This document shows, one piece after another, positions 1,924 through 52,453 of a stretch of 64,000 bases of DNA. The DNA is taken from NCBI GenBank assembly GCA_963726195.1, contig CAVSBO010000015.1, forward strand, positions 65,275 through 129,274, in the 5' to 3' direction. Under the pieces are notes generated by a model that did no database searches, was not told the DNA's origin, and saw only the letters and a list, made by a program, of their open reading frames with translations. The DNA comes from Candidatus Thorarchaeota archaeon (GTDB taxonomy: Archaea > Asgardarchaeota > Thorarchaeia > Thorarchaeales > Thorarchaeaceae). The stretch's first letter is position 1. Each line of letters starts with the position of its first letter. The position numbers were made by a program, and so were the translations under genes.

Positions 1924-2256
1924 ATGTCCCAAGAGAAGATACTGGCTCACCTCAAGGAAATTGCCAAGCGATTCGATGACCCAAAGATACAGAAGAGATT
2001 CGTGGGCTACAATAAGACGCTCCAGTTTGTGTTTCCCGACATCAAAGCGAGCATGTACCTGAAGATTGGCGACGGGAAAGTTCTTGCAGTCGGAGAAGGA
2101 GTAGTGCCAGCGGAACTGCAGGTGACAATGGACTCTACGGTCTTTCTTGGCATAATGGCAAAGACAGAAAGCCCGATGGCTGCGTATTCTGCAGGCAAGC
2201 TCAAGACAAAAGGCGAGGTCCCCGATCTGCTGAAGTTGCAGAAGCTCCTGCTGTAG
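1924..2256 (+). CDS. SCP2 (sterol carrier protein 2-like) domain protein
   Basis: The 110-aa product ends in AAYSAGKLKTKGEVPDLLKLQKLLL, matching the SCP2 C-terminal G-k-l-k-x-k-G motif. It is a paralogue of 7360-7707. Confidence 0.7.
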   Translation: MSQEKILAHLKEIAKRFDDPKIQKRFVGYNKTLQFVFPDIKASMYLKIGDGKVLAVGEGVVPAELQVTMDSTVFLGIMAKTESPMAAYSAGKLKTKGEVPDLLKLQKLLL

Positions 2257-5586: not shown

Positions 5587-7363
5587 GTGAAGGCCTATGC
5601 CGGCAAGATACTCGTCGCAGACCTAACAAAGGGAAAGACGAGTTCTATTGATACTGATTCTGCTCTCGCTGCCAAGTTCCTTGGTGGTGGCGGCTATGCC
5701 TGTGCGATGCTGTACGGCATAATGACCACTCCTCCTGATCCGCTTGGCCCAGAAAACTTTCTGCTATTCATGACAGGTCCACTGACTGGTACGACGGCTC
5801 CTTGCAGTGGTCGTCATGTTGTTTGTGCGAGGTCTCCTTTGACAGGATTCTGGGGCGAGTCAAACTCAGGTGGCCACTTCGGAGCCAATCTCAAGTTTTC
5901 GGGCTTCGATGGGATACTAATCAAGGGGCGAGCCAAGAAGCCCACCCTCCTTTTCATTGACGACGGTTCCCCGAGTCTGATTCCCGGGGAGCATGTCTGG
6001 GGTATGACTACCGACGCTGCTCAGGACAGAATCAAGCGCGACCTTGGAAGGGTGCAAGTCGCCTGCATCGGCCCTGCAGGAGAGAACAAGGTTCGATTTG
6101 CTAGCATAATGAACGACGAGAGATCAGCAGCTGAGATGCGGCCTTGGAGCAGTCATGGGTTCAAAGATGCTCAAGGCGATTGCAGTTCGAGGCAAGAATG
6201 AGGCCCCGCTAGCAGATCCCAGCGGTTTCAAGACGTTGGCTCAGAAAGCATTTCAGACTCTCGGTGAGCTTATGGCACCACTGAGAGAGTCGGGCACTGC
6301 AGTGTACGTAGACATAGGCATGGACTTCAATGATATGCCCATCAGGTATTTTCAGGAGACATCCTTCGACGTCTCATCACTCAATGCGAAGGCCATGGCA
6401 TCGATCCTGACAGGGAGGATTGCATGTCACTCATGTCCTATTGGTTGTGGTCGCAGGATTTCGATTCCTGAGATGGGTCTCGAGAACGTTGCTGGACCTG
6501 AATACCAGACAATCGCGGCTTTCGGAACGAACGTCATGAATGCCGACATAAAGCAAGTAGCCAGAATGAATAGGTTGTGCAATCAACTTGGCATGGACAC
6601 AGTATCATGCGGCAGTACTCTGGCTCTCGCAATGCACCTGCGCGAAACCGGTGCCCTCGACATAAATCTGGATTGGGGCGATACAGAAAAGATGGCGGAT
6701 ATGATTCAAGCCATCGCCACGCGCGAAGGGCAAGGGAATTTGCTTGCGGAAGGGTCCAAGAGACTTGGCGATTCTCTTGGTTCCAGTGACGAAGTCATAC
6801 ATGTGAAGGGAATGGAGGTTCCGAATCACGATCCTCGTGCATTCTCTGGGATGGCGACAATCTATGCCATAGCATCTCGCGGCGCCACACACCTTGAGGG
6901 AGATATGTACAGCGTTGACATGGGTGCTGACGTAAGGGAGCTCGGAATAAATAGTGGAGACCGGCTCGAGAATGAGGGCAAAGGAGTCATCGCCGCAAAG
7001 GCTCAGGACTATAGGGCCTTTTTCGATTCACTTGTGATGTGCCATTTTGCAATACTGCCGCTCCAAACGGTTGTTGACCTGGTCAGCTTGGCCACAGGGC
7101 GCACGATGAATATCACCGATATGCTGACCTTCGGCGCACGCAGTGTGACTATGAAACGATTGTACAATCTGAAGTGCGGTTTGACTCCGCAGGATGACAG
7201 ACTGCCTACCCAGCTTCTCAAGCCTTTGCCTGACAGTGCAACTGACGACTTTGCGCCGGATATCGGGCTCCAGCTGCGTGACTACTACAAATACCGAAGG
7301 TGGGATGAAAGAACGGGCAGGCCCAGCATCGAATCACTCAAGGAACTGGGACTGGAGTCTTAG
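5587..7363 (+). CDS. Aldehyde:ferredoxin oxidoreductase (tungsten AOR family), reading frame broken near 6125-6160
   Basis: The N-domain reads AYAGKILVADLTKGK...FMTGPLTGTTAPCSGRHVVCARSPLTGFWGESNSGGHFG. The continuation RCGLGAVMGSKMLKAIAVRG...GMEVPNHDPRAFSGMATIYAIASRGATHLEGD lies in another frame. The track shows two overlapping ORFs (5551-6201 and 6155-7363). The likely start is GTG 5587 (MKAYAGK), just after the aldolase stop. Confidence 0.8.
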
Positions 7364-7707
7364 GCACTCAGCAGACGCTGAAGCTTCAGCAAATCCCTGA
7401 CTGGCCCCTTTGGTTTAATCCGGCCCTCCATAGCTGCAATCGAGCCCGAGATTGTTCCATTAAGAACTCCCAGTATGGTCATACTGTCTGTCACTACTGT
7501 CATGTCCGGATTCTCCGGAGTCCCTTCTGTGGCGGACCCGTGTCCGTCTTGGAAGACCATCGTCACGTCGAGTCCTATGTCACTGAAGCTCATGAGCAGA
7601 GTTTTGTTGTACCCCTTGAAGTGCTTCATCATCTTGGGATCTTCTGTCTTGGCAGCCATCTTGCGCATTGCTTGCATAATATCTTCCTTAGTTGCCACAG
7701 TGTTCAC
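7360..7707 (-). CDS. SCP2 domain protein (paralogue of 1924-2256)
   Basis: KHFKGYNKTLLMSFSDI and AAMEGRIKPKGPVRDLLKLQRLLSA mirror KRFVGYNKTLQFVFPDI and GKLKTKGEVPDLLKLQKLLL in the first copy. It is convergent with AOR, with a 4-nt overlap. Confidence 0.7.
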   Translation of the reverse strand: MNTVATKEDIMQAMRKMAAKTEDPKMMKHFKGYNKTLLMSFSDIGLDVTMVFQDGHGSATEGTPENPDMTVVTDSMTILGVLNGTISGSIAAMEGRIKPKGPVRDLLKLQRLLSA

Positions 7708-36447: not shown

Positions 36448-37448
36448 TCACTGTTCTATTGTGATTAGGTTCAAGATGTTGCCGACAGCCTGCGCGATTT
36501 CTGCTTTGCCATCTCCATTGAGATCACCCATTGCCAACAGAGAATCGATAGGCTTTGTCGCAGTCTTTAACGAGGCGTCCTGAACTGACTTCTGCCCGTC
36601 GTAGGAGAGTAGAAGGACAGTTGAGTCTCTGAGGCCAATCAGGATGTGGTCTAGACGCGAGTCTTTCTCTAGGCGGCCGACATGTACCGAGCTACTTCCG
36701 ACGGGAGTTGTAAGACCGTTTTCGTTTCAAGCGTTCTTTGTCCCATAACGAGCAGACTCAGAGACCGGCCGTCCGATACCATTACGACATCATCATTCTT
36801 ATCCCCCGTTATGTTGCCCGTGGCCAGAAGATGTCCCTCGCCTCCTACGGGCAGCTTGGAGAGTTCCTGTAGCCTGTCGTCCGCATAGTGGTAGATGTAT
36901 AGAGATCCGGAATCATCACCGAATACGAGCCCGCTATAGGGCATGCCTTTGTTTCTCAAGGGTCGCACAGAAAAGGTCGGCCTATCCATTACTTTGTGGG
37001 CCAACTTGTCAAGGGCTGGCCCAAACCAGCCGTAGCATCTCAGCGCTCCATCATTGGTGGCTACTATCACTTCGGCCGCCTCGTTACCAACAACATTGGT
37101 TACGCAGAGAGCAGTAGGCAAGTTGCCTAGTTGGACTGTATCCATCACAACCAGCTTTCTTTCCACAGGCGATATTACTCGCACAGCATTGTCAAGCCCA
37201 CCAACGACAAGATCGGTACTACCTTTGTCCACGACATTTCCGGTGGAAAGAACAACCACGGGCGGTAGTCCAGTTGCCTTTGAGACCTGAACTAGCCTCG
37301 GCTTCCTAGCGGTTTCGATTCGCATAATCCTAACATCGCCATCAATTGTCGAGACTACGACGTTGCTGCGCTCCCGCCCAAAAGCCGCCACTTCTAGGGA
37401 GGTTATTGCTTCCTTAAATGAAAACTCAGCAATGACTCCCAGATTCAT
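36448..37448 (-). CDS. FG-GAP/VCBS-like beta-propeller repeat protein (no signal peptide), reading frame broken near 36670-36700
   Basis: Repeated blade-like units are visible (TGNVVDKGSTDLVVGGLDNAVRV; VVGNEAAEVIVATNDGALRCY; TGNITGDKNDDVVMVSDGRSL). A final unit, LAMGDLNGDGKAEIAQAVGNILNL, lies in another frame and ends at the stop 36448-36450. Confidence 0.55.
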
Positions 37449-38181: not shown

Positions 38182-39802
38182 GTGTGTAGCTCCTTAAGTA
38201 CACCTTGCCACATAATCCCCGCGAGGTCAAGTGCCTTGCCAAAGAAGCATACAGAGGCTGAATCATCGCCTTACGGCGATGTGGACCTAGGCATCGCAGA
38301 ACTCATTCGTCTGACCGGGATGCGAGAGTCAGCGCTGGTCGCCGCCCGCAAGAAGCAGGATGAATCTTGGAAGAAAATCAATGAAACAGTCTCGGAACAC
38401 AAGCGCATCGTTGCTATTGGTGGCCGGCACACACGCCAGAAGGCAATTCAAGATCCTGTCCATGGCGCAATCATCCTTGATCCCTGGGAACTAGACTTGG
38501 TATCAAGTTGGGAGATGCTGAGGCTTCGCTACATCAAGCAGCTCGGCCCTGCCTGTATAGTCTATCCCGGAGCGACCCACACGCGATTTGAACACTGCCT
38601 TGGCACAAACTTCCTAACGCAGAAGTGCATTAGAGTCGTCAATTACTGTGAAGACCTTGCCGATGCGTGCTTCAAGCCTCTTTCCGAATTGCTGGATGAC
38701 CATCAGCAGAAAATCTTCAGAGCTGCCGCTTTGCTACATGATGTCGGTCATCCACCGACATCGCACACGATTGAATTCCCGCTAAGAAGCTGGACCGGAC
38801 TCAGTCATGTTGACCTCGGTGAGATTCTCATCATGCGTAGCGGTCTCACTGACATTCTTGAGCAAAGCGGTATCGAGCCAAAAGCTGTCGTCGATGTTCT
38901 CATGCGTCGGTCGACGGACCCGGTGCTTAGCCTTCTTTCAGATTTCCTAGACTCGCCACTCGACCTCGACAAGACCGACTACCTGATTCGTGATGCGCAT
39001 TTCAGCGGTGTTCAGCTGGGCATCTTTCCTGCCGAACGGGTCATGCTCACCAACCGCGTAGTCCGTGACTCGGAAGGCAGGTACGTGCGGGCATTCATGT
39101 TGAAGGCGCTGCATTCACTTGAGGCACTGATTCTGAGTCGAAATTGGATGTTCTCAGATCTCTACCTGCACCATGCCGTGCGAGTCGCAGAAGCGCTTAC
39201 CTCCAAAGCCACATACTTCAGGATGAAGGAGGAGCAACTCTCCAAGAACGAGTGCATTGGAATGTTCACGAGAATGACTGATTCCGACCTTTACCAATGG
39301 CTCGGCGAGTCTGAGACCAACTTTGTTCGCGAATACGTAGCCAGAATCAGGTATCGGCGATTGTTCAAGGTGGCTGTGTCGAGAACCGATTGCCGCCCTT
39401 GAACCGGATGCCCGGAAGCGCGTACTGGACATGGCTTCTGACATTGATCGCCTGCTCCAAGCTGAGACCACGCTCGATGAGAATCCCGGAAAAGTAATCA
39501 TTGACGTGCTCAACCCTGAACTGGGGTTCCGGTTCCTATCGACCATTCCTCTCCTAATTGGGAAAGAGGACTCGAGCCTAGAGATAGTCAGTCTAAGAGA
39601 CACCTACGAAGGGAGACCTCTCGTGCAGGCACTGAGTCAGCAGAGATTTACCATTCCGTCAGTACGAGTCTATTGTGACCCTGAAATCGCTCCTGGCGTC
39701 CGACGGCGTTTCGATAGAGAGTTCCCGACCGCGCCACGGGCAAAAGACACAGAAGATGATTCTCAACGAACTCGCAAGCCCTACCATCATCACGAATCAT
39801 GA
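38182..39802 (+). CDS. HD-domain phosphohydrolase (SAMHD1/dGTPase-like), reading frame broken near 39370-39390
   Basis: IQDPVHGAIILDPWELDLVSSWEMLRLRYIKQLG...THTRFEHCLGT...LLHDVGHPPTSH...DKTDYLIRDAHFSGV are present. The C-terminal 123-aa ORF (39431-39802) reads back as REPIAALEPDARKRVLDMASD, joining the first ORF. Confidence 0.7.
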
Positions 39803-40507
39803 GTCATGCGTCGAGTTGTCATGCTCCTCAAGATGAAAGATGAGTCGCTTCACCTCATCCAAGCCCTGTTCAATGTACACGATTCCATAGACGGCCTCCA
39901 GAAGTGTGCCCTTTGTGTGGCTTATCTCGGACTTTGTGGGAGTTGGAGGATCGAAATGAATGCGATACTCGTAGAGCCCCCATTGATCACACAACCATGA
40001 TAGGTGTTCGTTGCTAACGAGCTCGGCTCGAGATTGGGTCAGCAGCCCTGCATCGGCAAGCCTCGGACGCCACAGATGATGAAGGACTGCCATTGAGATT
40101 GCCGCGTCTCCTACCAAGGCCAGAACTCTGGCCATATCACTCAACGATTTCAGGTTCACGAAAAGGCCCGAACTGAGAGGTCCGTCTTGGTTCGCGAAAT
40201 GCGTTTCAAGTTCAAGAAAGAGGCTCCTCGTGCTGGGCTGAAACATAGCTATTGAGAGAAGTTCAGTCTCTTCAAAGCGCAGTCCTAGAATGGATGAGAT
40301 CTTTGGCTCCAAGATGGTGTGAATCTGCGAGACCGCAGCAATGACGGTCTCAAGCTGCTGTCTCCAACGCTCAAGCTTGCCAAATAGCCGTGCGTTCAGG
40401 CGAGAAGTGTTGGCTTCGCCGGACTTCACGACTGCAAGTAGCGACTTCAGCTTGTCTTCAACGCCTACATGGTCCCAGTGCAGCTCCGTCCCGGTCACGG
40501 CTCTCAT
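39797..40507 (-). CDS. RNase III-domain protein without dsRBD, partly degenerate catalytic signature
   Basis: ILGLRFEETELLSIAMFQPS resembles the RNase III N-terminal LGYxFxxxxLLxxALTHxS. RVLALVGDAAISMAVLHHLW occupies the ERLEFLGD position. GTLLEAVYGIVYIEQG occupies the DxFEAxxGAIYLD position. Confidence 0.45.
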   Translation of the reverse strand: MRAVTGTELHWDHVGVEDKLKSLLAVVKSGEANTSRLNARLFGKLERWRQQLETVIAAVSQIHTILEPKISSILGLRFEETELLSIAMFQPSTRSLFLELETHFANQDGPLSSGLFVNLKSLSDMARVLALVGDAAISMAVLHHLWRPRLADAGLLTQSRAELVSNEHLSWLCDQWGLYEYRIHFDPPTPTKSEISHTKGTLLEAVYGIVYIEQGLDEVKRLIFHLEEHDNSTHDS

Positions 40508-41301
40508 ATCATGCCCTCTCCAGGGACTATGTGGGTTACCGCGGTTCTCTCTCCCTCATGACGCTGTATGTAGATGGCAGTAAGCGAGTACTGCATGGCG
40601 ATAAGGCACAATGCAAGCAGGATTACAGAAGGGCCCGTGGAAAGGTTCACTATGGGCTCAGACTCCGGCAATGCCTCGAGGACGACCTTCTCAATATGTG
40701 CGTAGGTCGCCATCAGATCTCCTCTTATTCGGGTTTCTTCGTAGCCCGCCACTTTTGTTGGCATCTCGTGCCAAATAGTTTGCCACTTCTTTGTGACTCC
40801 CTCAGGGACGTATCTATCGATGTTCTTGCTGACGCCTCTCGCGAACCGCTCCTGTTCGACAACGAGTCGGAGGAACTTGAAATTGAAGGTCATTTCCTTG
40901 GCAAACCACATCATTAGCGGTCGCGCCTCTTCAGGCTGACTAATAGACGTGATTAGAGTGCCCGGCCTCGAAATCCCGAGGGCCCTTCTGACAGACTGAA
41001 TTGCTCTAGGGTGCAGTTCGTATATTCTCTGTTGGGAATCTTTTCTGCTTACGATTATTCCAAGGTCCTCGAGATGCTTTGTGTTGAAGTAGAGCTTGGG
41101 ATCGGTCACCCTGAAATCATCGGGCTTTACGTTCTTCATGCCAGCTTGAACTGCCTCGGTCATCATGTTCTTCCTGATACTCTCTCGGAGCTCCGCTCCT
41201 GTCTTTGAGCCGCCTTCGAGCTGGTCCAGTATTATACGACGAACAGCAACGCTCTCCACTTCCGTCTTGACGAGCGTGTCGATGTGGTTTTGGAACATCA
41301 T
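40504..41301 (-). CDS. Winged-helix (ArsR-like) protein with C-terminal Rossmann-like, possibly CARF-like, domain
   Basis: The N-terminal wHTH reads RRIILDQLEGGSKTGAELRESI...HLEDLGIIVSRKDSQQRIYELHP. The C-terminal half has alternating strand/helix segments (PGTLITSISQPEEARPLMMWF...PIVNLSTGPSVILLALCLIA). A 4-nt ATGA overlap links it to the RNase III-like gene. Confidence 0.4.
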   Translation of the reverse strand: MMFQNHIDTLVKTEVESVAVRRIILDQLEGGSKTGAELRESIRKNMMTEAVQAGMKNVKPDDFRVTDPKLYFNTKHLEDLGIIVSRKDSQQRIYELHPRAIQSVRRALGISRPGTLITSISQPEEARPLMMWFAKEMTFNFKFLRLVVEQERFARGVSKNIDRYVPEGVTKKWQTIWHEMPTKVAGYEETRIRGDLMATYAHIEKVVLEALPESEPIVNLSTGPSVILLALCLIAMQYSLTAIYIQRHEGERTAVTHIVPGEGMI

Positions 41302-41623: not shown

Positions 41624-42763
41624 ATGGCTGAAGACGAATTCCTGGGCGCAAAGCCAGTTGTCATTGACAATGGCACTGGCCTTAGCAAGAACGGGTACGC
41701 AGGTGAGGACCAACCACGAAGTGTCTGGCCGACGCTGATTGGCTATCCACGATACGAGTCAATCATGACCGATGTAGATCACTACACTCGTGACTACTAC
41801 ATCGGTGAGGAGGCCATCAACCTACGAGGTGTCTTGCGTCTTGTGTATCCCATTACTCATGGAGTAATTGATGACTGGGACGCTATTGAGAAGATTTGGT
41901 CTTACACATTCTACAACGACCTCAAAGTTGACCCGAGCGAGAATCCTGTGCTTCTTACTGAAGCTCCATTCAATCCGCGAGAGAACAGAGAGCGAATGGC
42001 ATCAGTGATGTTCGAGAACTTTGGAGTCCCAGCCGTCTATGTAGCGACGCAAGCAGTGCTGTCACTGTACGCGTCCGGAAGAACAACGGGTCTAGTCATT
42101 GACTCGGGTGACGGTGTAACTCACATAGTCCCGATTTACGAGGGCTTCGCGATTACACACGCTATCCGAAGAATCGACTTGGCTGGACGTGACGTCACAG
42201 AGTATCTGCGTAGGCTGCTCAGACAGAGGGGTTACTCCTTCGTGAGCGGTGCTGAGAAAGAGATCGTTAGGGACATCAAGGAGAAGCTCTGCTATGTCGC
42301 CCTCGATCCTGAGAGGGAAAGAACAGTGGCTGACAAGGCAGGTGTCGACAAGCCCTACATGCTGCCAGACGGCGAGGTAATTACCGTTGGCGCTGAGAGG
42401 TTCCAGGCACCGGAGCTGTACTTCAACCCGAGCGCGATAGGCCTTGACACTTCACCTCTCGACGACCACATTGTCGAGTCAATCAAGGCATGTGATGTGG
42501 ACCTGAGACGTGACCTATACGCGAACATTGTCCTATCTGGTGGTTCAACCATGTTCCCAGGACTGAAGGAGAGACTCCACAAGGAGATCACCGAACTAGT
42601 CCCGGAGAACATTGAGGTCAGAATCATCGCTCCTCCTGAGAGACAGTACTCAGTCTGGATTGGTGGAAGCATCCTTGCTTCACTGAAGACCTTCCAGAAG
42701 ATGTGGGTCTCGAAGAAGGAGTTCGAGGAGTCAGGCCCCGAAGTCATTCACCGCTGTATCTAA
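41624..42763 (+). CDS. Actin, eukaryote-like (Asgard 'lokiactin'-type)
   Basis: The 379-aa product is collinear with eukaryotic actin: [132 protein letters not shown]. Confidence 0.95.
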
Positions 42764-42889: not shown

Positions 42890-44467
42890 GTGCTTTTACA
42901 GTATTTCTTATTAGAAGCACTTGGCGGATGTCAGAGTCCTGACTCTTGCGAAGCCCCTACGACGAATCTTCCCTTCTCGACGCTTCAGCGAGTCCGCGCA
43001 AAGGACAGGGACACTCAAGCAATGAACGAGATTTCAAGAAACCATCGCTTGGCTTTGACACTCTCTCCTCTCTGGAGGATTCTTGCGTCACGCTTGGCGG
43101 TCAAGTGTGAGAAATGCGGACAAGAGAGATTGCTGTCGGTTTTCCAGTTCTACTCGAAAGGTCAGCCTCCTCGCTGCCGGAGCTGCTTACTCGCCTCCGC
43201 GACTATGATGCCATTTATAGACCTGCTATTTCGGCGACTCGGAGTCCCCAAAAACACCACGAAGTCGTTGCTTGGGGATGCGATAACTCGCAAGTCCATG
43301 CTGAGTGTCGTGAAAGGCATTGCCAGCTTCGGAGTAAGATATCCACAGCCCGCCGGTGTGCCGATTGCCATTGTGTGGAACGTCACCAATAGATGCAACC
43401 TTCGCTGCATCCACTGCCATCAGGACTCATCGCCAACGTGTTCCGATTCGGAACTGACAACTGCGGAAGCATTCAAGGTCATAGACAACGTGAGCGATGC
43501 AGGGCTTGTAACACTGACGTTCTCAGGTGGAGAACCCCTAGTTCGGAAGGATTTGTATGACTTGATTGGGAGGGCTAATGACAGCGGCCTATTATGCACG
43601 ATAGCATCGAACGGCACTCTTCTGACCGCAGAGAAAGCCAGAGAACTTGCGAAGGCCGGAATCAAGCGAGTCGAAATAGGCCTAGATGGCTCGAGGCCTG
43701 AAACGCATGATTTTCTTAGAAACAAACAAGGGAGCTTCGAGGCCACCGTTGAGGCTATCCGTTGTTGCGCTGCTCAGGGCTTTGATGAGATAGCAGCGAC
43801 CATGACTCTGTACTCGAAGAATGCTGACGAATTACATGACACCATGGAGCTTGCTGAAAAGCTCGGTGCGACGAGATTCTATTTGAACAGACTCATCCCT
43901 GCAGGTCGGGGAGTGAGCGCATCCTATCTTGACGTAACTCCCAAACAGAAAGCTGACGCGCTGGAGACGTTGTATTCTAAGTTCCACAGGAGTGCAACCT
44001 GTGGTTCGGGCATACAATGCTACGCTAGAGGAATGACATACTACGCACGTCTAGGTTACGAGTGTTCGCGCGGCAGACTCTTCACGGTGAGTGAGTCTTT
44101 ATCGGGTCACGAAAGAATGTTCGAAGACAAGTTTGGCTCACAAGTCTCCAAGATTGTAAACAGGCTTGCAGAAGGCTTCGGCGGATGCTCCGCTGGATTG
44201 ACATATGCTGGGCTCACCGCCTCGGGCGATTTGACACCGTGCGTTCCGGCGTCAGAACCACTGGGTAACCTGCTCAATCAGAGCCTTGAGGACATATGGC
44301 TTCACAATCGAACTCTAAACCGCATAAGAGACCGCAAGGCATTGGGAGGTTCGTGTGGTACATGTAGTGACAATCGTATCTGTGGCGGCTGCAGATACAC
44401 TGCATACGTAGCAACGGGTGACTGGCTGGGATCTGATGTGTCTTGCCCGTGGGGACCAGCATGGTAA
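42890..44467 (+). CDS. Radical SAM / SPASM-domain protein with N-terminal zinc-ribbon extension
   Basis: VTNRCNLRCIHC is the CxxxCxxC motif. The C-terminal Cys cluster (GGCSAG...CVP...CGTCSDNRICGGCR) is SPASM-like. The N-terminus has CEKCG...CRSC. The start is more likely ATG 43022 (MNEISRNH). Confidence 0.75.
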   Translation: MLLQYFLLEALGGCQSPDSCEAPTTNLPFSTLQRVRAKDRDTQAMNEISRNHRLALTLSPLWRILASRLAVKCEKCGQERLLSVFQFYSKGQPPRCRSCLLASATMMPFIDLLFRRLGVPKNTTKSLLGDAITRKSMLSVVKGIASFGVRYPQPAGVPIAIVWNVTNRCNLRCIHCHQDSSPTCSDSELTTAEAFKVIDNVSDAGLVTLTFSGGEPLVRKDLYDLIGRANDSGLLCTIASNGTLLTAEKARELAKAGIKRVEIGLDGSRPETHDFLRNKQGSFEATVEAIRCCAAQGFDEIAATMTLYSKNADELHDTMELAEKLGATRFYLNRLIPAGRGVSASYLDVTPKQKADALETLYSKFHRSATCGSGIQCYARGMTYYARLGYECSRGRLFTVSESLSGHERMFEDKFGSQVSKIVNRLAEGFGGCSAGLTYAGLTASGDLTPCVPASEPLGNLLNQSLEDIWLHNRTLNRIRDRKALGGSCGTCSDNRICGGCRYTAYVATGDWLGSDVSCPWGPAW

Positions 44468-44525
44468 ACGTTGTTTTCGGATGCGACAACTTAGCGTAGG
44501 TACGCGTGCCGCTAATCGAATGTCC

Positions 44526-45473
44526 CTAGGACATCCGTTCAAGTCGTGCAGTGCTCTTACTCTGTCTTCTCTTGACACAGACAACTGCAACTGTCACAGA
44601 GGCTGCCGCCGCCAAGGCGAACGCCAAGACAGGTATGTCCGGAACTGGGTTGATCCGGGGTCCGACTGTCTGAATGGTATAACCAACTGGCAGTTCGTTG
44701 ACGACGTGAACTGTTACGCTGTCTGAGCTACTTGTCCATCCTGCAGAAACAGACAAAGCAAACACATGGTCTCCGAGCGAGAGGCCATCCACACTGATTG
44801 TCAACGACCCAGTCCATGACCAAGACTCGATGAGATAACCGTCTTCATAGAGCATATAATGGTTCGGACCTCCACGCCCGATTTCCCATGTAACAGTGTG
44901 GCCAGTGGTTCCTGTTAGGTACCACAGATCGGGTGTATCATAAAGCTCTATTGGCACGCCATCTTCGACGTAACCACCGAAGAGTATCTGGTAAGTACAG
45001 GTATCCGTGACTGCCCAGTCGTTTAGCAAATCCTTTGCAGCATATTTGACTTGGTATGTATATCCCTGAAAACCTGTGATGGGCGTCTCACTCAAATTGG
45101 CTGGAAAGAGAAGGAAGCATCTAAACCAGCTGGCGTTCGAAGTATCTTCAGTCATCGATAGGTTCTGCCAAGGGCCTTCCGCGTATGAATACATCATGAG
45201 TACCGTGTCGACTCCGTTCGGGTCCTGTACAAGCACCTGCAAAGAGAGATTGAATTCAAATTCCCAATAAACTTGGTAGTAGTACTTCCTAAGGTAGTAT
45301 CGCATGGAAGGGCCAGTGATATCTATTGACTTCGTCTGATTTTCGTTGTACATGATACTGGGTTTGGGCACGGCTACCGGAGAGGCTTGATTACCCAAGC
45401 AGAGAAGGTCTACACCCACGATCAGTATCAGCAAAGATACTACTAAACCCTGCCTCCAATCGATAATTTTCAA
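44526..45473 (-). CDS. Hypothetical surface protein (N-terminal signal/TM, C-terminal TM anchor, several N-x-S/T sequons)
   Basis: The N-terminus is MKIIDWRQGLVVSLLILIVGVDLLCLG. The C-terminal anchor is PVLAFALAAAASVTVAVVCVKRRQ. The body is beta-rich. I recognised no family. Confidence 0.45.
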   Translation of the reverse strand: MKIIDWRQGLVVSLLILIVGVDLLCLGNQASPVAVPKPSIMYNENQTKSIDITGPSMRYYLRKYYYQVYWEFEFNLSLQVLVQDPNGVDTVLMMYSYAEGPWQNLSMTEDTSNASWFRCFLLFPANLSETPITGFQGYTYQVKYAAKDLLNDWAVTDTCTYQILFGGYVEDGVPIELYDTPDLWYLTGTTGHTVTWEIGRGGPNHYMLYEDGYLIESWSWTGSLTISVDGLSLGDHVFALSVSAGWTSSSDSVTVHVVNELPVGYTIQTVGPRINPVPDIPVLAFALAAAASVTVAVVCVKRRQSKSTARLERMS

Positions 45474-45940
45474 TGCCTCGAGATGCCATATCAGCCGCCT
45501 GAGATAAACGCTTTCATGCCCCGAACTCTTTGGTCAGAGAAGTAACTCTTTTCTTGTGAACTGTAACTGTCAGACTTGCGTTAATGGTTTGCCTGAAGTG
45601 CCGTACAGACGCCATGACCAGACCTCTCTCTGACTACTCACATAGCAGTTGAAAGTGCGATCCGTGTGCGGCACGCAGACGACTCAACGAATCAATCAGC
45701 GTTTCCTCTTTGTCTCCAACAAGAAAGACCGATTGTATTTACAACCGTCTGTCTCTTGTTTGCACCCAGCCTCGAACAAACGACATAGGTTTGCGGCCTC
45801 CCCTCGGTACGACTCGCGAACGATGATATTCTGTAGGCGCAGTTCATGCAGCTCTTTGGCAAAACCACATTCTAGGCCTCCTCGATTAGTCAATAACACG
45901 ACATCGCTGCTATGTCTTTCTCCCGATTAAAGGGTCCTGC

Positions 45941-46711
45941 CTAGGTAGGGGACAACAGAAAAGGCAGTATCGAATATCCGCTGAACAAGACTGGAGCAAA
46001 GTCGAGTAAGAAATGAATACTGGCAATTGGCCACATGCTCTTGGTCTGTCTGTAGAGAAACACATAGCCGATGGGTATCATGAATTGAATCGGGAAGAAG
46101 ATTTCCGTCCAGAAGAAAGCGTATGTGCTTCCGAGCAAGAACTTGCCCCAGAAGAAGGCATGAACGAGACCAATCAAAGAAAGATACAACAGCGTCCCGA
46201 TGGCAATCATTGCTGTTCTCTTTCTGCCAGCATCGTAATAGTCTGCATATGAGTCGAATGTGTAAAGCCAGATTAGTTGTTCAGACATCGCATTCGCAGG
46301 CGCCCACAATAAGAGCGTGGCGAGCCATCCAAGTGTGTTCACTGAAGAGACTCGAATCACAGTCGCATATGATGCCATAACAAGCACAAGCTGTAGCGCG
46401 AGAACGACAAAGAAGAGAGGTGTTGCGGATCGTTTCACCTTGCGCCATATCGGTTCTCGCTCTATGCCGTAATCAAGGCGTCCCCTTCTCCATTTCACGA
46501 TCACCCAAGAAAAGATGACATAGTAAATGAACATCGGAACCAACGCCCCAATCAGACTGTAGGTGTAGCCAAGAAGCAGCGGCAGACCAAGTGCTGCGAA
46601 CAACGCAATGGCCAGATCTGCTCTCTTCGGTTGAAACGACGGTTGCCTCCCTTCTATACCGCTCAAAGTCTCACCACTGGCTGCGTCAGGTTGCTGCCTT
46701 ATAGATGTCAC
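45941..46711 (-). CDS. Polytopic membrane protein, possibly degenerate CPBP (CAAX protease)-like
   Basis: There are about 7 hydrophobic segments. SEQLIWLY, LVHAFFWG and SIHFLLDF sit roughly where the CPBP motifs EExxxR, FxxxH and HxxxD occur, but the first is not conserved. Confidence 0.35.
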   Translation of the reverse strand: MTSIRQQPDAASGETLSGIEGRQPSFQPKRADLAIALFAALGLPLLLGYTYSLIGALVPMFIYYVIFSWVIVKWRRGRLDYGIEREPIWRKVKRSATPLFFVVLALQLVLVMASYATVIRVSSVNTLGWLATLLLWAPANAMSEQLIWLYTFDSYADYYDAGRKRTAMIAIGTLLYLSLIGLVHAFFWGKFLLGSTYAFFWTEIFFPIQFMIPIGYVFLYRQTKSMWPIASIHFLLDFAPVLFSGYSILPFLLSPT

Positions 46712-47169
46712 CGTGCGGACTCGTCAGTGCACTTATATCGTGGCACCTCGCGCGAATTGCGCCAGGTGTAATCATTATGGACAGAAGCGGGTACCATCGA
46801 CTGTTGTTTGTAATTGCAGCAATCTGGAACTGGGTCTTAGCTGTGCTTTTCTTGGTGCTTCCGAGAATCAATATTGACTACTTCCTGTTGGGCGGCAGCC
46901 CAATTCCTCCAACATTACTTTGGTTCGATTGCTTCATGGGCGAAGTCTTAGCTTTCGGAATTGGTTTCTATCTCGTCAGCCTAAATCCGAAACAGAATCA
47001 CGGCCTTATTGAGATAGCCATCTTCGAGAAACTGTGGGTATTTGTCATGGGTCTCGGCTATTTTCTCATCGCACAAGCATCAGCTTTGCTACTTTCGATA
47101 GTCACTGGCGACCTTCTCTTCGGTCTACTCTTTGTTGAGGATCTCATACGAATTCGCAAGCTGCCCTGA
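46705..47169 (+). CDS. Hypothetical membrane protein
   Basis: There are four hydrophobic segments. The probable start is internal (MDRSGYHRLLFVIAAIWNW). Confidence 0.35.
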   Translation: MSPCGLVSALISWHLARIAPGVIIMDRSGYHRLLFVIAAIWNWVLAVLFLVLPRINIDYFLLGGSPIPPTLLWFDCFMGEVLAFGIGFYLVSLNPKQNHGLIEIAIFEKLWVFVMGLGYFLIAQASALLLSIVTGDLLFGLLFVEDLIRIRKLP

Positions 47170-49476: not shown

Positions 49477-50927
49477 GTGGCAACAAGCATGGACGAGTAC
49501 GAGCGATTGTTGCACGAAGGCACAGAGCAAGACCGGCTTATTGATTCAGTGGGCAATCGGGATGTGTTTGACAGGGAATCTGGGGCGGAACTGGCCAGTT
49601 GGGAGCTCCGGCTTCACAGGGAGTTTCGCGAGAGAATAGGCAGTAGGACATACAGATTCAGGGGGTTCGTCCATCATACTCGTGAACTCTCTCTCATCAT
49701 GCTCACACCGAGTCCTTGGCTACTAGGCGGCGTGTTCGTGCATCTCCACGAAGGGCAGGAGATGCCGCCCGAAGGAGCATTCGTTGAGGTTACCGGCCCC
49801 ACAATCGCGGCACCCACTCTTCTTCAGCGTTCCCAGACCCTTGTCAGGGCGATTGCGGCCGAGAGCCTGAGCGTCCTGTCTCCCGAGACGCCCCCCGGAG
49901 TCTCTCCTCCTCTCACTCTAAAGGACCTCTCCGAGATGCTGTTTGAGCATGTCGGAATAGCGGAGGCCAGCAAGGGAGCGTTTGCTCGACTGTTCGTCTC
50001 AAGTCCTCCGTACAAAGAAGCTGTGGGTGGTCTCACTATGGGGATTCTAGCTCTTGCTGCAGAATCTGAAGTGAAGAGGCTGCTCAATTTCGTCCGAAGG
50101 GTGCTTCCCCCAACGTTCAGGACTAGGTACAAGTCATATCGGTCCATAGACGGCATAGATGTCACATTGCCCAAGCTATGGCGGTTAGAAACTGGCCAGA
50201 CATCTGAGCCAAGAATGGAATCGATATGCGTGAAGCGAGTTGATCCTCTTGGCTACAGAGAATGTCCCTTGGAGCTCTGACGGATTCAAAGACTGCTGTT
50301 TTCCCTGATGTTCCTCTTGCAATTGCCTCAGGAGACTTCTGGGTGGAGGAGAAGGACGCTTCCCAATTGATGCTCCCGGTCCTCAAGGCCGCTATTACTT
50401 ATCAGCTCCTTACTCCAATTGTCAGTGAACGGTCCATCGACTCAGCAACAAAGCATATCGTTTCCCGTCTGGAGTCGCTGAGGGATAGCTACGACCTTGG
50501 TGATTCGGCTCTGGCCAGAGGAGGGCTTCTTGATGCTGACTCCATGGGCAGGCCACTCAGCACCCTCAGGCTCGCACAGTCTACTGCACGTGCAGAATGG
50601 AATGATACGGTCAATAGTGGCGAACTGAAGCACTCTTGGGATCAGATACTGGAACCGGCCCTCAGAGAGTTCATTGAGACCAGCGAGCTGAAAAGTGAGA
50701 GAGAACAAGAAGGGGGTCCCGGAACCAAACTGGGCAAGTTCGACACCAAGATTCTTAGAGTCTTGAAGGCGTTGGACGATGGTGTCCGTGGCTCTCTGGG
50801 ACCGACTCTTGAGCTGATTGCCGGAGAAGCGAGTCTGGAGCGACATATCGCTGCCGAAAGCCTGACGAAATTGAAAGATGCGGGGGTCATCTACGAGCCC
50901 CGTGCCGGCCACTACAGACTAGTGTGA
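49477..50927 (+). CDS. Hypothetical protein, possibly MCM-derived and ATPase-inactive, with C-terminal winged helix; two ORFs probably joined by a frameshift near 50262-50280
   Basis: The C-terminus LTKLKDAGVIYEPRAGHYRLV resembles the MCM winged helix. SMGRPLSTLRLAQSTARAEW resembles the MCM lid R-x-L-E-x-x-x-R-L-x-E-A-x-A. ILALAAESEVKRLLNFV sits where Walker A would be but lacks GxxGxGKS. These are by-eye resemblances only. Confidence 0.3.
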
Positions 50928-50957: not shown

Positions 50958-51575
50958 TCAACGCAGCAGTTTCTTGATGCTGTCTGGTTCCTCGCCCTCG
51001 TCGACGAGTATGATTCTCTGGGCTCCTACTCGTTCTGCATCGTACTTGCGTGCGATGATTGTTGCGTCGAACTTCTCACGTGCACTTGCCTTTTTGCCAC
51101 GCCAGATGTAGATGTTGTCCCAAGTGTCCAAGAGGAACACGTACTCGCTCTTGAGCGAATCACGCGCCCATGGCACTTCTGTAAAGAAAGTCTGTCCCTT
51201 GACATTAGATACTCGCCACATCTTGTATTCATGTTTCTGAAGCTGGACCTTTCTCAGAATACCGGCTGTGTCTTCGTCTGTAAGCTGGAAGCTCTTGAAA
51301 AGTGCTTTGAACGCTGGAGGCTCATCTCCACCGTCAATACGGACCAGCTGGGCTTGGCCCTTGCGTGCTGTGTCCCTGAAGACCGCCTCGGCAGCGGCTA
51401 GGAACTGCTCATCCGCTGTCGACTTGGGACCAATCCACATGTACACCGTGAGGCCCCCATCGACAAGGTAGCAGTCTCCCTGTCCGAATTTGCCGGGGTC
51501 CGGCACCTTGACAAGCTTGCCCTGCTGGATGTGATACACAGTGACTTCGGGCATGATGGTTAAAGATGCAAACAT
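50958..51575 (-). CDS. Two-domain gelsolin/cofilin-fold actin-binding protein (Asgard 2DGel-like)
   Basis: Domain 1 reads VYHIQQGKLVKVPDPGKFGQGDCYLVDGGLTVYMWIGPKSTADEQFLAAAEAVF...LVRIDGGDEPPAFKALFKS. Domain 2 reads MWRVSNVKGQTFFTEVPWARDSLKSEYVFLLDTWDNIYIWRGKKASAREKFDATIIA...RIILVDEGEEPDSIKKLL. Both follow the gelsolin-repeat pattern (VWRVE...GDAYVIL...HYWLG...ES..F...F). Confidence 0.85.
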   Translation of the reverse strand: MFASLTIMPEVTVYHIQQGKLVKVPDPGKFGQGDCYLVDGGLTVYMWIGPKSTADEQFLAAAEAVFRDTARKGQAQLVRIDGGDEPPAFKALFKSFQLTDEDTAGILRKVQLQKHEYKMWRVSNVKGQTFFTEVPWARDSLKSEYVFLLDTWDNIYIWRGKKASAREKFDATIIARKYDAERVGAQRIILVDEGEEPDSIKKLLR

Positions 51576-51646
51576 CGTAGTTAAGTCATGTTCCTATAGA
51601 CCACACTATTGCCCAAACGAATTGGGCTCTACATACGGTGACTCCT

Positions 51647-52453
51647 ATGCCCGAGCTGCCAGAGCTAGAGGTAATTGCGGAGAGATTGAGAGAGGTTCTT
51701 GCCGGTGAAGCAATCGACGACATCGCAGTCCATAATCATCTTGTAATTCACGGAGGTACTGCAGATCAATTCATAGCGAAAGCGAAGGGGAAGTCGTTTC
51801 TTGCTTTCGGCGCGGACGGGAAGTTTCTCATCATGAGCCTAAGCGACTCGCTTGAGATTGTGATTAATCCAATGCTGACAGGCCGGTTCAGGATTTCCGA
51901 GAAGGAGAGGTCGGCCTCAAAGTCCGATATCTTCTCAATTCGGACATGCAAGCGTATCCTGTGGTACGCTGATCAGAAATCGATGAGTCGAGTCTACATT
52001 GTAACAGCGAGAGAAGAAAGCAAAGTGGCCGGGTTCGAAGGCAGAGGTCCGTCCGCCCTTGATCCTGGCCTCACCCTAGAAATCTTTAGAACACGTGTTC
52101 CAAGATTCCAAGGTCAGATCAAGAATGTGTTGGAAAACCAGCGGTTCATCAAGGGAATTGGTAATGCATATGCTGACGAGATTCTGCTGTATGCGGGAAT
52201 ACTGCCTTTTCGAAAGCGGAGTTCCTTGGACAGCGAAGAGATTGAGCGGCTGTATAACGCCATGAGAGGTGTGCTTGGCCGCTACCGCGAAATGCTATCG
52301 CACCGCAGTCTTGAGGACTTGGGACCAGAGAAACGCGATTTCCTGATGATTCACAACAAAAAGGGAGGGATGTGCCCGCTCTGCGGCGGCCGCATATCCG
52401 AGGTAAGCGCGAACCGATTCAAGACCAACTACTGCCAGACATGCCAGAAGTGA
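51647..52453 (+). CDS. Formamidopyrimidine-DNA glycosylase / endonuclease VIII family (Fpg/Nei)
   Basis: MPELPELEVIAERL gives the catalytic N-terminal Pro after Met removal. The H2TH region is IKNVLENQRFIKGIGNAYADEIL. The C-terminal zinc finger is CPLCGGRI...CQTCQ. Confidence 0.8.
   Translation: MPELPELEVIAERLREVLAGEAIDDIAVHNHLVIHGGTADQFIAKAKGKSFLAFGADGKFLIMSLSDSLEIVINPMLTGRFRISEKERSASKSDIFSIRTCKRILWYADQKSMSRVYIVTAREESKVAGFEGRGPSALDPGLTLEIFRTRVPRFQGQIKNVLENQRFIKGIGNAYADEILLYAGILPFRKRSSLDSEEIERLYNAMRGVLGRYREMLSHRSLEDLGPEKRDFLMIHNKKGGMCPLCGGRISEVSANRFKTNYCQTCQK

Follow-up and report, generated by a model that had tools for sequence, protein, structure and literature searches.

The minus-strand open reading frame (ORF) at 50958..51575 of the 64,000-nucleotide stretch of Thorarchaeota DNA analysed here (the window) raises the question of whether this archaeon encodes its own gelsolin-type regulator of actin and, if so, how closely that protein follows the two-domain gelsolins (2DGels) already characterised from its phylum. 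The original prediction described a 'gelsolin/cofilin-fold' product of 205 residues with two tandem gelsolin-pattern repeats, orthologous to the Thorarchaeota 2DGels and encoded about 8 kb from an actin gene with which it is not co-transcribed.

Family, domain architecture and fold

The reading frame is present as described, encoding 205 residues that include the motif pairs GDCYLVD/EYVFLLD, YMWIGPKS/YIWRGKKAS and DEPPAFKALF/EEPDSIKKLL, but the length of the protein requires revision, the start being probably Met8 and the product 198 residues. Local alignment of the two halves gave a score of 96, compared with 24 ± 4 (maximum 45) in 500 shuffles; since this far exceeds the shuffled maximum, the halves are homologous. 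A Pfam search matched Gelsolin (PF00626) twice in the product, with a score of 89.7 bits (cut-off 21; E = 1.1e-25) and the best stretch in domain 2 at residues 132–200, in agreement with the proposed tandem repeats. The composite fold label stands in its gelsolin part and falls in its cofilin part, because no ADF-H/Cofilin_ADF family was matched by the same search even at E ≤ 10. The Pfam family DUF7904 (PF25480) also overlaps the gelsolin repeat of domain 1, at residues 36–82 counted from Met8 (E = 2.3e-8, above cut-off), and its match is precomputed for nearly all homologues.

The top PDB sequence matches (phmmer) were the Thorarchaeota proteins 2DGel (7c2g_G, E = 6.9e-86) and 2DGel3 (7c2h_G, E = 5.7e-82), both crystallised with rabbit actin, to which the product aligns end to end without gaps over about 192 residues with 65% and 61% identity, respectively, and the predicted orthology is thereby upheld. 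Plasma gelsolin (about 2e-45), villin, CapG and adseverin came after these two, with the Heimdall 2DGel (1e-22) and the Loki 2DGel (2e-19) further down. Homologues form 89 clusters in the protein database, almost all of 196–199 residues, and those that are named are 'hypothetical proteins' of Thorarchaeota MAGs. The nearest cluster (P0001) is 98% identical; an exact-sequence look-up of the 205-residue product found none on record. In a species-representative set, orthologues occur in at least 80 species genomes of Thorarchaeota and Hermodarchaeota (80 loci), the nearest being that of Thorarchaeota MAG OWC5 (88% identical), with most of the others being Thorarchaeota at 61–74% and the Hermodarchaeota lying at 51–54%. 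A double match in Hermodarchaeota loci had suggested a tandem duplication or four-domain gelsolin, and was dismissed as the internal repeat aligning to itself.

The architecture is one of two gelsolin domains in 198 residues from Met8, with no C-terminal Tail, Link or Zn extension. The features of the locus are as follows (residues numbered from Met8 unless stated).

50958..51554, minus strand: 2DGel gene, likely true extent (198 residues plus stop, from Met8), from homologue starts, P0001 differences and a TATA-like box
51279..51554, minus strand: gelsolin domain 1, about residues 1–92, with the GDCYLVD strand, W40-x-G42 and a long helix, from Pfam and from alignments to gelsolin G1 and 2DGel D1
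51246..51257, minus strand: WH2-like inter-domain motif L100-R-K-V103, its Leu and Val invariant in 80 of 80 loci
50958..51245, minus strand: gelsolin domain 2, about residues 104–198, plus stop, with the EYVFLLD strand, W151-R-G153 and a long helix, from Pfam, alignments and the secondary structure of the model
51141..51143, minus strand: codon TAC for Tyr138 (Tyr145 in ORF numbering), at the domain-2 Type II Ca2+-ligand position, where all 80 loci have Asp
51555..51575, minus strand: seven in-frame codons (MFASLTI), probably untranslated, unconserved in sequence and length among homologues
51580..51586, minus strand: TATA-like box ACTTAAC (predicted function), 32 nt before the ATG of Met8 (51554)
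41624..42763, plus strand: actin gene (Pfam Actin, E = 5.8e-134), presumed physiological partner, not co-transcribed

Ca2+ ligands were assigned by alignment to gelsolin together with the text of PMC9433394 and PMC6628662. Domain 1 contains the complete Type II (G26, D27 and E49) and Type I (D61, G66 and A68) signatures, and these residues are kept in 76–80 of the 80 loci. Domain 2 contains the Type II Glu160 and a Type I signature (D172, G177 and Q179) that is invariant across all 80. The two W-x-G motifs, W40-I-G42 and W151-R-G153, belong to the gelsolin-type D...W-x-G motif and not to the WP motif of ADF-H/cofilin; both are conserved in 76–80 loci, as are E160 and L100-R-K-V103. The inter-domain motif has been defined as Leu, two basic residues and Val or Thr (PMC9433394; the motif is also described in PMC7444086), and the middle positions of L100-R-K-V103 are basic in most of the loci. 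All of the Type I, Type II and WH2-like signatures of a 2DGel are present in the product bar one residue, the domain-2 Type II Asp.

These signatures bear on whether the protein might instead be of cofilin/ADF-H or ProGel type, a filament-side binder free of calcium control. The gelsolin and cofilin folds are alike, the register in which Thor ProGel binds actin is cofilin-like (PMC7444086), and the single-domain chain 7c2f_B weakly matches the product (E = 0.009). Set against this are the two domains, the lack of any cofilin-type Pfam match, the 61–65% identity to 2DGel chains, and the D...W-x-G motif and Ca2+ signatures, which ProGel is without. The cofilin/ProGel reading is effectively refuted by the two domains, the Ca2+ signatures and the missing ADF-H profile, and we regard it as highly improbable.

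The 2DGel reading is further supported by an AlphaFold2 model built on 36 homologues (mean pLDDT 82, pTM 0.55), in which the element order E-E-E-E-E-H-E-H occurs twice and each repeat is a gelsolin-type beta-sheet with a long helix. A Foldseek search of the PDB with this model returned 7c2g_G (Thor 2DGel/actin, 5.6e-29) and 7c2h_G (2DGel3/actin, 9.6e-29) first, and the best 50 matches were all gelsolin-family structures, such that the model shows two gelsolin-type repeats rather than some different fold. The whole-chain TM-score against the actin-bound crystal forms is about 0.48, which we take to reflect another inter-domain orientation in the free model, itself uncertain, and not another fold.

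PF00626 also includes the gelsolin-like domain of Sec23/24, which is not known to bind actin (PMC7444086), and a gelsolin-like role unrelated to actin was therefore considered, along with the possibility that the gene is a eukaryotic contaminant. The Sec23 trunk, zinc-finger and helical domains are all missing from this protein of only 198 residues, and its best matches are the actin-bound 2DGel crystal structures. The flanking genes are 76–91% identical to, and collinear with, those of OWC5, which argues against contamination and assigns the window to a Thorarchaeon close to the OWC5 lineage. Domain content and synteny refute both proposals, and together they are even less probable than the cofilin/ProGel reading. 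We conclude that the product of 50958..51554 is an ordinary Thorarchaeota 2DGel orthologue, one more member of the characterised family, and place at about 0.93 the probability of the whole explanation, in which it is a small protein of the cytosol that regulates the eukaryote-like actin of the same organism, its activity assigned by homology.

Start codon and promoter

Homologues, whose modal length is 198 residues, start at a Met corresponding to residue 8 of the longest ORF, and the upstream extensions that gene callers have added in some cases vary in length and sequence. Three of the four differences between the product and P0001 fall within the seven residues before Met8 (Fisher p = 1e-4). 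The ATG at 51575 is only 4 nt past the end of the TATA-like box and, because of this proximity, would be expected to lie upstream of the transcription start given the usual archaeal spacing between the two elements. Of 73 orthologous loci, 39 have a box of the form [ACT][CT]TTAA starting at −33 to −31 relative to the conserved ATG, compared with 3 and 1 loci for two control windows of the same size. On the basis of the homologue starts, the P0001 differences and the box position, the gene is placed at 50958–51554, and its true start is almost certainly the Met8 ATG at 51554. For the 2DGel family, both the gene model and the predicted promoter are thereby corrected.

The TATA-like box sits in a 62-bp divergent intergenic region that is common to the 2DGel gene and a gene for an Fpg/Nei DNA glycosylase. 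We infer that 2DGel would be transcribed alone from this box, divergently from the Fpg/Nei gene, and that its mRNA is probably leaderless or nearly so. A scan for sigma-70 promoters and intrinsic terminators gave no match; such a scan is in any case ill-suited to an archaeon, its models being bacterial.

Two promoter architectures are found upstream of this one gene within one phylum (loci L018, L049, L059, L061, L062 and others). In the first, an ACTTAAG-type box lies at about −32 and a Shine-Dalgarno element is lacking, and the mRNA is probably leaderless. The second has a TTTATACATGAA box at about −45 and GGAGAGG at about −10, and its mRNA probably carries a leader. Loci of the SMTZ1-45/AB_25 group have a TTTATA box further upstream and the Shine-Dalgarno-like GGAGAGG element before the same ATG.

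Gene neighbourhood and linkage to actin

The 2DGel gene resides in a block, strongly conserved across Thorarchaeota, which comprises, on its upstream side, genes for an RNase Z-like protein, two hypothetical proteins, TrmB, Ham1, a luciferase-like monooxygenase, an M20 peptidase and Fpg/Nei, and, on its convergent side, genes for hypothetical proteins of 221 and 267 residues, a DNA methylase and a 4Fe-4S protein. There are no cytoskeletal genes among these neighbours. The Fpg/Nei gene (51638–52453, plus strand; Pfam Fapy_DNA_glyco, H2TH and zf-FPG) is divergent from 2DGel across the 62-bp gap and adjoins it in 48 of the 80 loci. Its listed GTG start at 51638 puts three residues before 'MPELPELE', and because the catalytic residue of the family is the N-terminal Pro, the real start is probably the ATG at 51647. 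The overlapping genes for the 267- and 221-residue hypotheticals (49477–50280 and 50262–50927, both plus strand) run convergently towards the 2DGel gene, ending 30 bp from its stop codon, and are its most conserved neighbours, present in 55 and 61 of the 80 loci, respectively. Neither protein has a Pfam or NCBIfam match. The 221-residue protein weakly matches the C-terminal region of an MCM3 subunit in the PDB (8x7t_D, E = 0.014), a similarity that may reflect a winged-helix domain.

The assignment of 41624–42763 as an actin gene is borne out by its Pfam match and by 60% identity to rabbit skeletal actin. Glu167 (in PIYEG) and Asp25 are both kept in the window actin; in the characterised complexes these residues contact 2DGel-bound Ca2+ and complete the interface Ca2+ sites (PMC9433394). 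The end of the actin gene is 8.2 kb from the 2DGel stop, and the two genes are on opposite strands with unrelated genes between them (for a radical SAM/SPASM enzyme, three hypotheticals, the 4Fe-4S protein, the DNA methylase and two further hypotheticals), which agrees with the earlier statement that they are not co-transcribed.

Across the 80 loci, an actin orthologue lies 0.5–9.5 kb downstream of 2DGel in nine; in L026 it is the immediate, convergent neighbour of 2DGel at 529 bp, and in L014 and L036 the distance is about 1.5 kb. In 35 of the 44 loci with full 10-kb flanks there is no actin within the flank. Linkage between actin and 2DGel is a loose and rearrangement-prone synteny. An operon of the two genes was rejected on the strength of their opposite strands here and of those 35 loci. 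At the level of the phylum, 2DGel sits within a fixed housekeeping gene block to which actin is loosely and variably linked, and for this reason the arrangement does not amount to a cytoskeletal operon.

The region 42890–47169, between the 4Fe-4S gene and actin, contains the radical-SAM/SPASM gene and genes for hypotheticals of 315, 256 and 154 residues, none of which has a counterpart among the 80 related loci; the region looks like a lineage-specific insertion pushing actin away from the 2DGel block. On the far side of actin, at 39797–41301 (minus strand), a divergent gene for a 265-residue hypothetical is followed by one for an RNase III-domain protein, with an HD-domain protein gene further on. 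These three travel with actin in five to six other Thorarchaeota loci (L004, L014, L015, L022, L026 and L036), and the 265-residue protein has no family match. Actin and these conserved partners are located beyond the 2DGel gene block.

No second gelsolin-domain gene (ProGel or 1DGelX) was found in the window when six-frame segments of at least 40 residues were scanned with D1 and D2 HMMs and filters off: only the 2DGel ORF was matched, everything else having E > 3. The report that the window holds no profilin candidate agrees with our searches at their sensitivity, in that no Pfam Profilin match was obtained at E ≤ 0.05 for 83 window ORFs of 95–190 residues in six frames, nor any PDB match to profilin for six unannotated ORFs including the pair at 49477–50927; very divergent Asgard profilins could escape Pfam searches over this size range and PDB searches alike. 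Ten hypothetical ORFs of the window, among them genes flanking 2DGel and actin, have no NCBIfam name.

Two observations concern other genes in the window. A 259-residue ORF at 36669–37448 (minus strand) has weak matches to the eukaryote-type beta-propeller families BBS7, RSE1/DDB1/CPSF1 and the BBS2 middle region (E = 1e-6 to 1e-4, near or below curated cut-offs). Two SCP2 sterol-carrier-like proteins of 110 and 115 residues are encoded about 5 kb apart at 1924–2256 (plus strand) and 7360–7707 (minus strand).

Calcium control and comparison with known gelsolins

Three Thor 2DGels have been purified and shown to sever, cap and sequester rabbit actin in a Ca2+-dependent manner, with 2DGel2 and 2DGel3 also nucleating it and some bundling and annealing observed; human cells expressing 2DGel or 2DGel2 lose F-actin when triggered by Ca2+ (Akil et al. 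2020; PMC7444086). In the structures, D1 is bound like gelsolin G1 and four to five Ca2+ ions are present (PMC7444086, PMC9433394). By homology, occupation of both Ca2+ sites of domain 1, Type I and Type II, would activate the window protein, the activated domain and the LRKV motif would bind the barbed-end cleft of actin, and domain 2 would add a second, weaker contact. The expected outcome would be Ca2+-dependent severing, capping and monomer sequestration, with nucleation or bundling depending on the orthologue, and the most likely function is accordingly to cap, sever and sequester the actin of the organism itself once activated by Ca2+. The exact activity profile is not transferable, because at 61–65% identity the window protein falls below the 76–89% that the three characterised proteins share, and these themselves differ in bundling, severing and nucleation.

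The one unusual feature of an otherwise routine gene is the tyrosine in EYVFLLD, a motif quoted in the original prediction without remark on the fact that an invariant Ca2+-ligand Asp is replaced there. The position of Tyr138 is Asp in every one of the 80 species-representative loci, and 34 of the 35 homologues in the alignment have Asp there too, P0001 being the sole exception. Since P0001 comes from an independent JGI contig and has Tyr too, a sequencing error is disfavoured. In a HMMER alignment Tyr138 pairs with the Asp of 'NNGDCFILD' in gelsolin G2, which we take to be D187 in the numbering of mature plasma gelsolin. The text of PMC6628662 is consistent with this, and reports that with D187N/Y, a change at the Type II site of G2, this domain can no longer bind Ca2+, while the mutant gelsolins still regulate actin, their Ca2+ activation being delayed. 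In the Thor 2DGel structure the Type II site alone is occupied in D2, the Type I signature of that domain being conserved nonetheless (PMC9433394).

Judged from the alignment, the domain-2 Type II site of the product is probably disabled; domain 2 would then probably bind Ca2+ poorly there, and the calcium response may be shifted. Tyr138 is a single-residue deviation which leaves family membership unaffected but may change calcium regulation, as loss of this Asp could. A stronger reading is that calcium control is materially changed, operating through domain 1 alone, more slowly or at another Ca2+ level, making the protein a natural counterpart of human D187Y. The replacement of an Asp invariant in 80 genomes, its occurrence otherwise in P0001 only, the effects of D187N/Y on G2 binding and activation, and the status of Type II as the sole occupied D2 site speak for it. 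Against it, the idea is a pure inference from the residue; Glu137, the conserved Glu160 or the D2 Type I residues D172 and G177 might compensate, the functional effect of human D187Y is only mild, and the change could be nearly neutral and specific to the lineage. We consider a material change possible but doubtful. The more specific proposal, that the lineage of the window organism and P0001 has fixed the equivalent of D187Y, abolishing the only D2 site seen occupied and leaving control to domain 1 alone, is somewhat less likely again. Were the D187Y-equivalent reading true, the lineage would represent a natural experiment on the share of the domain-2 calcium site in the regulation of a proposed ancestor-like gelsolin, and the natural Asp-to-Tyr variant is a cheap and well-defined test of the role of that site.

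Among known systems, the product of the 2DGel gene is closest to Thor 2DGel, 2DGel2 and 2DGel3 (Akil et al. 2020, PNAS; PDB 7c2g and 7c2h), with which it has in common a length of 198 residues, two gelsolin domains with no C-terminal extension, both Ca2+ signatures of D1 (Type I and Type II), the Type I signature and Type II Glu of D2, and an L-basic-basic-V motif (LRKV here, LRRV there). They also have the phylum and the locus in common, SMTZ1-45 (L059) and AB_25 (L061) showing the order Fpg, 2DGel, the 221- and 267-residue hypotheticals, methylase and Fer4. The window protein differs from these three in standing outside their range of mutual identity and in having Tyr where they have the D2 Type II Asp138, while the box at −32 and probably leaderless mRNA of its clade differ from the TTTATA box further upstream and GGAGAGG of the SMTZ1-45/AB_25 promoter.

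The two-domain core, the Type I and Type II signatures and the inter-domain WH2-like motif are also found in the Heimdallarchaeota and Lokiarchaeota 2DGels, which sever, cap and sequester actin under the control of Ca2+ (Akil et al. 2022, PMC9433394; PDB 7whf and 7whg). Those proteins, however, have C-terminal Tail or Link-plus-Zn extensions and extra Ca2+ sites, where the window protein has no extension; the Loki motif is LVDV and not basic, and identity is only about 30%. With the eukaryotic gelsolin superfamily (gelsolin, CapG, adseverin, villin, fragmin and severin) the protein shares the repeat fold, the positions of the Ca2+ sites and G1-type actin binding, matching gelsolin at E = 2e-45 in sequence and about 1e-15 in Foldseek, although the eukaryotic proteins have three to six repeats rather than two. 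In the Thor structure D2 is placed on actin differently from gelsolin G2 (PMC7444086). Finally, Tyr138 resembles the human D187Y/N gelsolins of familial amyloidosis, Finnish type, in that a Type II Ca2+-ligand Asp is replaced by Tyr at the homologous position of a gelsolin repeat. The human changes are pathogenic, acting via furin cleavage in G2 of a secreted six-domain protein, whereas the archaeal tyrosine is a fixed natural variant of a two-domain one.
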